Origin: a virus
Taxonomy: Duplodnaviria; Heunggongvirae; Uroviricota; Caudoviricetes
DNA length: 64,000 nt
IMG/VR virus record: IMGVR_UViG_2565956726_000008
Reading direction: 5' to 3' (one strand)
The first letter of the stretch is position 1. Each line of letters starts with the position of its first letter. Under the pieces are notes generated by a model. The model did not search any database. It saw only the letters and a program-made list of their open reading frames with translations, and was not told the origin of the DNA. A program made the translations under genes and the position numbers. This document shows positions 27,434 to 28,084 of this stretch, piece after piece.

Positions 27434-27502
27434 ATGTTTACTTTTCTGTTAGGCGTATTTGTTGGCATAGCTGCCGCTGTGATCTTGATATACGGACATT
27501 GA
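27434..27502 (+). CDS. hydrophobic mini-ORF 1 (22 aa)
   Basis: MFTFLLGVFVGIAAAVILIYGH; RBS gagaggg. Confidence 0.35.
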   Translation: MFTFLLGVFVGIAAAVILIYGH

Positions 27503-27506
27503 TATT

Positions 27507-27602
27507 ATGGACGCTTACATCATCGCCGGATTAATCGGAGTTTCTGTATTTCTGGTTGGTTTTATTATAGCCGTACTGATAACCGTAATGAGCAAGTATT
27601 AG
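27507..27602 (+). CDS. hydrophobic mini-ORF 2 (31 aa)
   Basis: MDAYIIAGLIGVSVFLVGFIIAVLITVMSKY. Confidence 0.35.
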   Translation: MDAYIIAGLIGVSVFLVGFIIAVLITVMSKY

Positions 27603-27615
27603 ATGGGGTGGCAAG

Positions 27616-27690
27616 ATGATTGACCTGCTCATTATCCTTTCTGCCTGCGTCGCTGTATGGCTGGCTATCATGATATTCATTGAAAGCTGA
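27616..27690 (+). CDS. hydrophobic mini-ORF 3 (24 aa)
   Basis: MIDLLIILSACVAVWLAIMIFIES. Confidence 0.35.
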   Translation: MIDLLIILSACVAVWLAIMIFIES

Positions 27691-27701
27691 AGGTATTCAC
27701 C

Positions 27702-27782
27702 ATGAACGCATATGAAATGCTATTGCTGGTGGCTGTAGTTGTAGTCATTGCCGTAGATGTTTATCGGGAGTTTAAAAAATGA
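27702..27782 (+). CDS. hydrophobic mini-ORF 4 (26 aa)
   Basis: MNAYEMLLLVAVVVVIAVDVYREFKK; RBS gaaggt. Confidence 0.35.
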   Translation: MNAYEMLLLVAVVVVIAVDVYREFKK

Positions 27783-27847
27783 AATGGCTTGATTTCTTTT
27801 TCCTGATCGTTGCGATTGTTCTTACCATGACCGCGTTAACTCAATAG
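27779..27847 (+). CDS. hydrophobic mini-ORF 5 (22 aa)
   Basis: MKWLDFFFLIVAIVLTMTALTQ; ATGA overlap. Confidence 0.35.
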   Translation: MKWLDFFFLIVAIVLTMTALTQ

Positions 27848-27855
27848 GTGAACGC

Positions 27856-27930
27856 ATGAATGCTATTGATATTATGTTGATCGTGTGTACCGTTGCGTTA
27901 ATTATTATTGGGGTGATTATCAACGTCTGA
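27856..27930 (+). CDS. hydrophobic mini-ORF 6 (24 aa)
   Basis: MNAIDIMLIVCTVALIIIGVIINV; RBS aggtg. Confidence 0.35.
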   Translation: MNAIDIMLIVCTVALIIIGVIINV

Positions 27931-27946
27931 CAGTGACTTCTTAATT

Positions 27947-27991
27947 ATGGCTATATGCACGTTGTTAGTCGTTATCGTTTTCTTCGCATAA
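27947..27991 (+). CDS. hydrophobic mini-ORF 7 (14 aa)
   Basis: MAICTLLVVIVFFA. Confidence 0.25.
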   Translation: MAICTLLVVIVFFA

Positions 27992-28000
27992 AGGTAAACA

Positions 28001-28084
28001 ATGAAAGAGCTATTCGACTGGTTGGAAGTATTAACATACTGCGCAAGTTTTGTGGCTTGCGTATATATCATCAATAAATATTAA
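28001..28084 (+). CDS. hydrophobic mini-ORF 8 (27 aa)
   Basis: MKELFDWLEVLTYCASFVACVYIINKY; RBS aaaggt. Confidence 0.35.
   Translation: MKELFDWLEVLTYCASFVACVYIINKY

Follow-up and report, generated by a model that had tools for sequence, protein, structure and literature searches.

Several described groups of very small membrane proteins and of phage accessory genes share features with the locus treated here, an array of miniature open reading frames (ORFs) in a 64,000-nucleotide stretch of DNA from a tailed phage (Caudoviricetes; IMG/VR record IMGVR_UViG_2565956726_000008), which we refer to as the window. Holin/antiholin clusters, such as T4 RI and the multi-membrane-protein cassettes of actinobacteriophages, are late loci that lie beside endolysin or spanin genes, sometimes in tandem; holins usually have 60-150 amino acids (aa) and a charged C-terminal domain, and they come as 1-4 genes. 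The Pf3 coat protein and the Ff proteins pVII and pIX (32-33 aa) combine an acidic N-tail, a hydrophobic helix and a basic C-tail and insert Sec-independently with the N-terminus out, the genes of pVII and pIX being tiny and translationally coupled. The type I toxins IbsC, TisB, ShoB, Ldr and Hok are small and extremely hydrophobic, and the ibs and ldr loci are tandemly repeated in E. coli. In P22-like and lambdoid phages, accessory ('moron') genes such as ST64T orf-118, orf-129 and orf-134 occupy the slot between lysis and terminase genes with mosaic variability. Finally, bacterial small inner-membrane proteins (AcrZ, MgrB, MgtS, CydX, YohP; PMC12648545) have one transmembrane helix, very short tails and 20-50 aa; they are often missed by annotation and act by binding larger membrane proteins.

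The array lies at 27434-28084 on the plus strand, between the lysis genes and the gene for the terminase small subunit (TerS), and consists of eight back-to-back ORFs of 14 to 31 codons, each encoding a hydrophobic helix (Table 1). Although small membrane proteins are familiar from phages, it is unusual to find up to 13 of them as paralogues in one array with a fixed order and a varying copy number. The feature is real and statistically robust; it is restricted to one lineage, has largely escaped annotation and matches no family described so far. The explanation that we favour, and consider reasonably probable, is that the array consists of paralogous genes that are transcribed together, are in part translationally coupled and encode single-pass inner-membrane microproteins of about 22-31 aa.

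The AcrZ-type proteins resemble the array peptides in size, single helix and short tails and, by analogy, are probably the best model for their action. They are encoded by single chromosomal genes with their own regulation, whereas the array comprises 3-13 paralogues per genome in fixed order and with translational coupling; no homology was found. The type I loci are alike in peptide size, hydrophobicity and tandem repetition, but each is driven by a promoter of its own and paired with a cis-antisense RNA antitoxin; neither feature was found at the array, nor was any homology. Pf3 coat protein, pVII and pIX are virion proteins of filamentous phages, whereas the array phage is tailed and temperate; neither a sign of a structural role nor homology was detected. 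Membership in the holins or antiholins was considered and rejected: the window peptides have only 14-31 aa and are almost tailless, another gene stands between the array and the lysis cassette, and none of these peptides gave a Pfam or PHROG holin match. The best holin-family match of any array family was that of family L, which is absent from the window (E=0.04 to phrog_920). The accessory genes of P22-like and lambdoid phages share the slot and its mosaic variability, and ST64T orf-129 is a homologue of mEp021 gp49 that the array phages also carry. These genes are, however, of ordinary size and unrelated, and none of those phages has mini-ORFs in the slot.

All eight consecutive plus-strand ORFs of the original prediction were found. 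They occupy 90% of the 653-nt array and encode peptides with a grand average of hydropathy (GRAVY) of 0.8-3.0. When the array sequence was shuffled 2000 times with preservation of dinucleotides and hydrophobic ORFs of >=14 codons were counted, 0.97±0.90 such ORFs were obtained with a maximum of 4, as against 8 in the real sequence, which bears out the claim that the run is unlikely by chance. The minus strand of the array contains no hydrophobic ORF, and everywhere else in the 64-kb window a 653-nt stretch holds <=3.

For comparison, the interval between the gp49 homologue and TerS was collected from 55 genomes, comprising the window, 7 GenBank phages and 47 IMG/VR contigs. It measures 318-1154 bp (a 3.6-fold range, median 836), and in 55 out of 55 cases it is filled with the same type of ORF, to 87% on average. 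In total 497 ORF copies were found, 3-13 per genome with a median of 9; mEp021 has 5 cassettes in an array of 485 bp, and mEp010 has 10. The peptides have a median length of 24 aa, 92% of them do not exceed 35 aa, and the longest reach 47 aa. They form about 22 families, among which F, C, H, B and M are near-universal (Table 1), D, E, G, I, J, K and L are variable, and A, A2, P, R, T and V are alternative first members. The 55 genomes display 39 architectures with a constant order of families, the precedence graph being acyclic and no family occurring twice in one genome.

Sequence variation among these copies is that of coding DNA. Variable sites are distributed over the three codon positions as 129, 94 and 234, with an excess at the third (chi-square p=7e-16). 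The pooled ratio of nonsynonymous to synonymous polymorphism (pN/pS) is 0.283 in frame, compared with 0.98 and 1.29 when the same alignments are read in either shifted frame, and it lies at 0.13-0.39 in every one of the 15 testable families. Conservation is position-specific, as in the C-terminal YFWWKNVV of D and D2, the IINV of I and the MNAY[DE] of F and Q. Genes are otherwise intact or cleanly absent, with about 3 decayed copies alongside the 497; these include D copies that are truncated in L022 and have lost their start (ATG to ATA) in L046. The situation in which the DNA is conserved and the frames are not can be set aside, as frames are kept in all 55 genomes. From these comparisons we regard it as very likely that the mini-ORFs are real protein-coding genes under purifying selection.

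The opposite view is that they are not genes, either because they arose by chance in T-rich DNA or because the interval is a packaging site (pac/cos) or another DNA or RNA element in front of TerS. The composition of the array (36.6% T; GC content 0.39 vs 0.46 for the whole window) does favour hydrophobic codons, AT-rich intergenic DNA yields chance hydrophobic ORFs (PMC11188072), and the Prokaryotic Genome Annotation Pipeline (PGAP) leaves the ORFs uncalled. Yet shuffling reproduces about one ORF instead of eight, the codon-position bias, the low in-frame pN/pS and the conserved frames are those of genes, and DNA repeats are lacking in an interval of widely varying length, so that the probability left to this view is negligible. 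A packaging site or repeat element was rejected for want of tandem repeats and of a conserved length. A structured RNA was likewise rejected, since a search of 26500-28500 returned no Rfam family and the folding stability is as predicted from composition (z-score -0.10).

Individual members deserve comment. The window goes directly from family C to family F, with cassettes D and E cleanly missing. The exact sequence of mini-ORF 2 is present at NCBI as a 'hypothetical protein' (ESK37530.1). Mini-ORF 7 differs from the others in that its ancestral ATG (27923-27925) reads ACG in the window, a change that is synonymous in the overlapping upstream ORF, and in that the 14-aa ORF starting from an internal ATG at 27947 (27947-27991) has no Shine-Dalgarno (SD) pairing. 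The full-length, 22-aa form of family J (MSDSDFLIIAISSLLVVIVFFA) is found in relatives, while the 14-aa form is present in 5 genomes, namely the window and four close relatives. Because the start codon was lost, mini-ORF 7 was classed as a decayed copy, and the inactivation is probably recent; of the eight ORFs originally described, this one is a remnant. Family M, the last member, has its stop codon some 10 nt upstream of the start of TerS in most genomes. A 40-aa ORF in an alternative frame (27955-28077) was also considered. It is not hydrophobic, overlaps families J and M (mini-ORFs 7 and 8) and lies in the frame in which other genomes have family K or an extension of it; it is probably not a gene in the window.

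Table 1. Coordinates and properties of the array members and of the neighbouring features in the window. SD, Shine-Dalgarno pairing energy; insertion, predicted membrane insertion energy (both in kcal/mol).
Feature	Position	Strand	Assignment	Peptide	Length	Genomes with family	SD	Insertion
Intrinsic terminator	25397-25415	+	7-bp stem with 6 GC pairs, then T-run; 25 nt 5' of holin start
Class II holin	25440-25640	+	PF16080 1.6e-14; phrog_20 (holin)
Lysozyme	25641-26132	+	PF00959 5.9e-43
Rz-type spanin	26120-26590	+	PF03245 7.7e-25
mEp021 gp49 homologue (left anchor)	26859-27431	+	phrog_1365 3e-31		190 aa
Mini-ORF 1	27434-27502	+	family A	MFTFLLGVFVGIAAAVILIYGH	22 aa	23/55	-8.8	-2.7 to -3.1
Mini-ORF 2	27507-27602	+	family B	MDAYIIAGLIGVSVFLVGFIIAVLITVMSKY	31 aa	46/55	-3.2 (weak)	-3.3
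Mini-ORF 3	27616-27690	+	family C	MIDLLIILSACVAVWLAIMIFIES	24 aa	51/55	-7.1	-4.9
Mini-ORF 4	27702-27782	+	family F	MNAYEMLLLVAVVVVIAVDVYREFKK	26 aa	53/55		+1.5 to +3.3
Mini-ORF 5	27779-27847	+	family H	MKWLDFFFLIVAIVLTMTALTQ	22 aa	49/55	-6.9
Mini-ORF 6	27856-27930	+	family I	MNAIDIMLIVCTVALIIIGVIINV	24 aa	39/55		-3.4 to -5.1
Mini-ORF 7	27923-27991	+	family J remnant	MAICTLLVVIVFFA	14 aa		-0.2 (none)
Mini-ORF 8	28001-28084	+	family M, last array member	MKELFDWLEVLTYCASFVACVYIINKY	27 aa	50/55, and 5 more as N-terminally extended forms
Hydrophilic ORF between family M and TerS	28094-28240	+	hypothetical protein	MVSNEELKMADEIRK...	48 aa			+23.9
TerS (right anchor)	28251-28766	+	Sf6 type; PF20901 1e-37

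Membrane insertion energies were computed for the best 17-19-residue segment of each peptide, on the scale of Hessa et al. 2005. Most families gave predicted values of -2 to -5 kcal/mol, and F, M, D and Q gave +1 to +4. Reference values were +3.4 for the phage's own holin segment, -2.9 for the Rz signal-anchor and +7 to +24 for soluble proteins encoded in the window; the marginal value of mini-ORF 4 is thus on a par with that of the holin's own transmembrane segment. The flanks of the hydrophobic segment are asymmetric. In 17 out of 22 families the N-flank has a net charge of -1 or -2, usually in the form M-x(2-4)-D/E, and in 19 out of 22 the charge of the C-flank is 0 to +4, the C-tails of the window peptides having 0-8 residues. 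With an acidic N-flank and a neutral or basic C-flank, the positive-inside rule predicts an N-out/C-in orientation, which suggests an architecture of the Pf3-coat type. Judged from sequence, the peptides are likely to be membrane-inserted, and their paralogy, conserved frames and insertion energies agree with the original description of a family of membrane-type single-helix peptides.

In size and hydrophobicity the peptides are also like IbsC, TisB and ShoB (PMC12648545), and the holin with which they would be produced responds to the energy state of the membrane. They might accordingly be depolarising peptides of the type I toxin kind, either as toxin-antitoxin modules or as accelerators of the proton-motive-force collapse that triggers the holin. 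We consider this very improbable. The best NCBIfam match had E=0.29 and 11.6 bits against a cut-off of 60, and the other peptides had none. Antisense to the array, two weak promoter-like sites were seen on the minus strand, and such sites are at chance level (6 found vs 6.4±2.3 in shuffles); no Rfam family of antitoxin small RNAs was detected. The gaps of -4 to +16 nt leave no room for separate promoters or 5' untranslated regions, and up to 13 toxins per operon would be unprecedented. The type I toxin reading, one of the possibilities named in the original prediction, was rejected on homology, antisense RNA and separate promoters alike.

SD pairing is clear for some starts (-8.8, -7.1 and -6.9 kcal/mol) and modest for others (-3.2 to -3.9). 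The mean of the mini-ORFs is -4.7 kcal/mol, whereas all ATGs average -2.4 and long genes -6.6 (p=0.007). The ribosome-binding site claimed for each ORF is therefore convincing for four starts (the three clear ones and one at -3.9), weak elsewhere and missing before mini-ORF 7. Of the several ATGA overlaps originally described, the window contains one, between mini-ORFs 4 and 5 (27779-27782, gap -4), and its remaining gaps are 4-16 nt. Across the relatives, however, this overlap is the commonest junction (84 cases), an 8-nt overlap occurs 40 times, and the rest are mostly +4 to +17 nt. The junctions are operon-typical and of the coupling type.

A consensus scan found no promoter or terminator within the array, the genes of which are all co-directional with the lysis and packaging genes on the plus strand. 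Since the array lacks such signals, it would be transcribed late together with these genes, on a rightward transcript running from the lysis cassette into the packaging genes, as in late operons of other phages. The intrinsic terminator in front of the holin (Table 1) recalls lambda tR' and, by this analogy, may mark the start of an antitermination-dependent late transcript; for this phage group, only an N-like early antiterminator has been described.

The tight packing and overlapping of the ORFs, together with the near-universal family M that ends about 10 nt before TerS or an inserted ORF, could also mean that translation itself is what matters. The array would then be a translated filler, in which ribosome transit prevents Rho-dependent polarity and couples translation into TerS, while the peptides have no function and selection merely keeps the ORFs open and harmlessly membrane-soluble. 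The dispensability of individual members, the loss of cassettes cleanly and not by frameshift, and the lack of a detectable conserved helical face would fit as well. However, a pN/pS of 0.28 and the position-specific conservation exceed what a constraint to stay open would impose. In distant relatives the gp49 homologue adjoins TerS, so that nothing needs bridging, and the array grew to 13 genes instead of shrinking. We hold the filler explanation to be improbable.

The families are related to each other. Out of 231 pairs of family representatives, 25 scored z>3 against composition-matched shuffles, where about 1.5 would be expected. Paralogue groups are F/Q/D/D2/U, G/H/K/J and A/A2/R, and family R is chimeric, joining an N-terminus from B to a C-terminus from A. 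A comparison of the window with L009, which has an identical gp49 homologue, revealed a 177-nt D-E indel, the ends of which are the ATGAA start codons of D and F. With such breakpoints at start codons, the array changes by gain and loss of whole genes, through recombination between the similar 5' ends of paralogues. Apart from short repeats at chance level, no tandem or dispersed DNA repeats were found in the array, the paralogues being too diverged at the DNA level. In L029 (IMGVR_UViG_3300045988_063525, 4086-4931) the stop codon of B is lost and B and C form one 60-aa ORF with two hydrophobic segments, indicating that adjacent cassettes can merge into a two-helix protein.

The array is specific to one lineage of coliphages, as far as the sequence collections searched can tell. 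The window phage belongs to the mEp021/mEpimmI group of temperate, non-lambdoid coliphages and is about 88% identical to MagusPhagus, mEp021, mEp010, mEp013, mEp044, mEp515 and mEp554; with its Sf6-type TerS it does not conform to the lambdoid, cos-carrying layout assumed in the original prediction. A sensitive DNA search of 50,697 phage records found the array in seven mEp-group phages and nowhere else, and matches to a degenerate DNA pattern of family C in IMG/VR were confined to contigs of the same group. The array is present in a prophage of 35 out of 5426 complete E. coli genomes, and a degenerate pattern of family F had no match in species-representative genomes. A scan anchored on gp49 yielded 9 distant loci, none with the array. 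Homologues of gp49 also occur in P22-like phages and in prophages of Citrobacter, Kluyvera, Atlantibacter, Mixta, Pantoea and Serratia, where they take the same slot between lysis genes and TerS, beside ordinary genes or TerS itself and never beside mini-ORFs.

Searches of Pfam, PHROG, NCBIfam and PADLOC gave no family match for any peptide, in line with the claim that the array lies outside the canonical gene set. A concatenate of 14 peptides had no match in a large protein database, a result that is probably uninformative because generic hydrophobic proteins crowd such a search. PGAP annotates none of the hydrophobic mini-ORFs, and RefSeq prophage copies list none, whereas PHANOTATE-based GenBank records list some as 'hypothetical protein'. 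Among ten sequences submitted to exact look-up, hydrophobic peptides of 26, 31, 32 and 47 aa were found in a public protein collection, always unnamed or 'hypothetical', and five of 22-27 aa were absent from it. No account of these ORFs or of a similar tandem array came up in literature searches, and the paper on the phage group mentions neither the ORFs nor late transcription (PMC11893012). The same paper reports that the group is as common in human gut samples as lambdoid phages and has lipoprotein exclusion genes elsewhere in the genome.

Hypervariability, restriction to one lineage and a region used by accessory genes are typical of conflict loci. The array has a hypervariable content, with its 39 architectures and 3-13 copies, is confined to one lineage, and lies in a region that accessory genes occupy in related phages. 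It could therefore serve exclusion or counter-defence, each helix binding a different inner-membrane protein of the host or of a rival phage, for instance one needed for DNA entry or one that serves as membrane effector in abortive infection, with turnover reflecting an arms race. Classical exclusion genes are expressed from the prophage, and expression of the array in that state is unlikely because it has no detected promoter of its own. Moreover, selection within families is purifying (pN/pS 0.13-0.39) and not diversifying, PADLOC gave no match, and the genomes of the group already have lipoprotein exclusion genes elsewhere (PMC11893012). An exclusion or counter-defence role seems rather unlikely, although it ranks next after an effect on lysis timing. 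A broader and equally speculative possibility is that the array forms a self-renewing, phage-borne library of transmembrane-helix binders, reshuffled in place by duplication, start-codon recombination and chimera formation. Each helix might then be retained because it binds and disables, or adjusts, a separate inner-membrane target, whether from the host or from a competing phage; defence effectors, DNA-entry factors and the holin are examples. We likewise regard this suggestion as a long shot.

Under the explanation that we favour, the array of paralogous membrane microproteins, the peptides would be made late in lytic growth on the rightward transcript from lysis to packaging, insert N-out/C-in like the Pf3 coat protein, and act within the inner membrane by helix-helix contacts with larger membrane proteins. 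Among such proteins the holin comes first to mind, and the peptides may tune the holin triggering that sets lysis timing. From position and timing, an influence on these membrane events that end infection is our leading guess, a tentative one, and no single named target can be proposed with more assurance than that.

Several observations weigh against this explanation or parts of it. The link to the holin is purely positional, and between lysis cassette and array lie a 270-nt gap and the gp49 homologue. Holin sequences are nearly uniform (51 of 54 in one cluster), as are those of the endolysin. Mantel correlations are weak (holin 0.32, gp49 0.37, TerS 0.11), and Fisher tests of cassette content against holin, endolysin, gp49 and TerS alleles were weak as well, with statistics that ignore phylogeny. 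A copy number of 3-13 per genome implies that members are individually dispensable, and relatives whose lysis and packaging genes are similar manage without an array. The variability shows no periodicity of a helical face (p=0.47), small-xxx-small motifs of the GxxxG type are not enriched (p=0.26), and the assignment to a late transcript draws on analogy with other phage late operons.

Upstream of the array, the 270-nt gap lies between the lysis cassette and the gp49 homologue, and downstream TerS is followed by the large terminase subunit (TerL) and the portal gene, all on the plus strand. Residues H79, E80, H83 and E106 of the gp49 homologue (HExxH...E) are invariant across relatives that are 47-93% identical to it, a spacing that resembles the minimal gluzincin metallopeptidase motif. 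The mEp-group protein has a Lys-rich C-terminal tail that is absent from the 123-144-aa homologues of P22-like phages and other Enterobacterales prophages. The PDB gave no match in a profile search of its sequences, and a single-sequence AlphaFold model, with a predicted local distance difference test score (pLDDT) of 45.6, was too poor to use. In mEp013 (L006, 2033-2518) the gp49 homologue and the array are separated by an inserted gene for an HNH endonuclease, from which it follows that the slot also takes mobile or accessory genes of ordinary size.

The 48-aa hydrophilic ORF that follows family M falls outside the hydrophobic family and is present in the window and a minority of relatives. 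It is the sole ORF of the interval with a PGAP annotation, its homologue being called a hypothetical protein, and its cluster has 22 members, all of them E. coli hypothetical proteins. Its presence explains the 155-nt difference between the window and L008, L010 and L013, which have the same architecture.

Other small ORFs with predicted transmembrane segments were seen elsewhere in the window. These are a tandem pair of 37 and 40 aa at 11241-11484 on the plus strand, with SD pairing of -9.5 and -5.6, and single ORFs of 30 aa (13210-13302, plus strand) and 33 aa (6205-6306, minus strand), both with SD pairing. The region 11.1-13.4 kb is kept in 7 out of 7 GenBank relatives and annotated mostly as hypothetical; in mEp021 a 'putative toxin-antitoxin system subunit' is listed there.

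Small membrane proteins are poorly charted in bacterial and phage proteomes: gene callers apply length cut-offs that exclude them, and homologues are rare. The array sets up to 13 such microprotein genes side by side, with unusually clean comparative evidence, and exposes an annotation gap in that RefSeq prophage copies lack these genes. Cultured, inducible representatives exist in E. coli K-12 (mEp021, mEp010, mEp013, mEp044, mEp515 and mEp554), making the array a practical system for the roles of phage microproteins, the specificity of a single transmembrane helix, and gene birth and turnover. Should the array indeed be a library of helix binders, it would be a phage counter-measure of a new class, and one that lets the birth of transmembrane genes be followed and dated in nature within one phage lineage.

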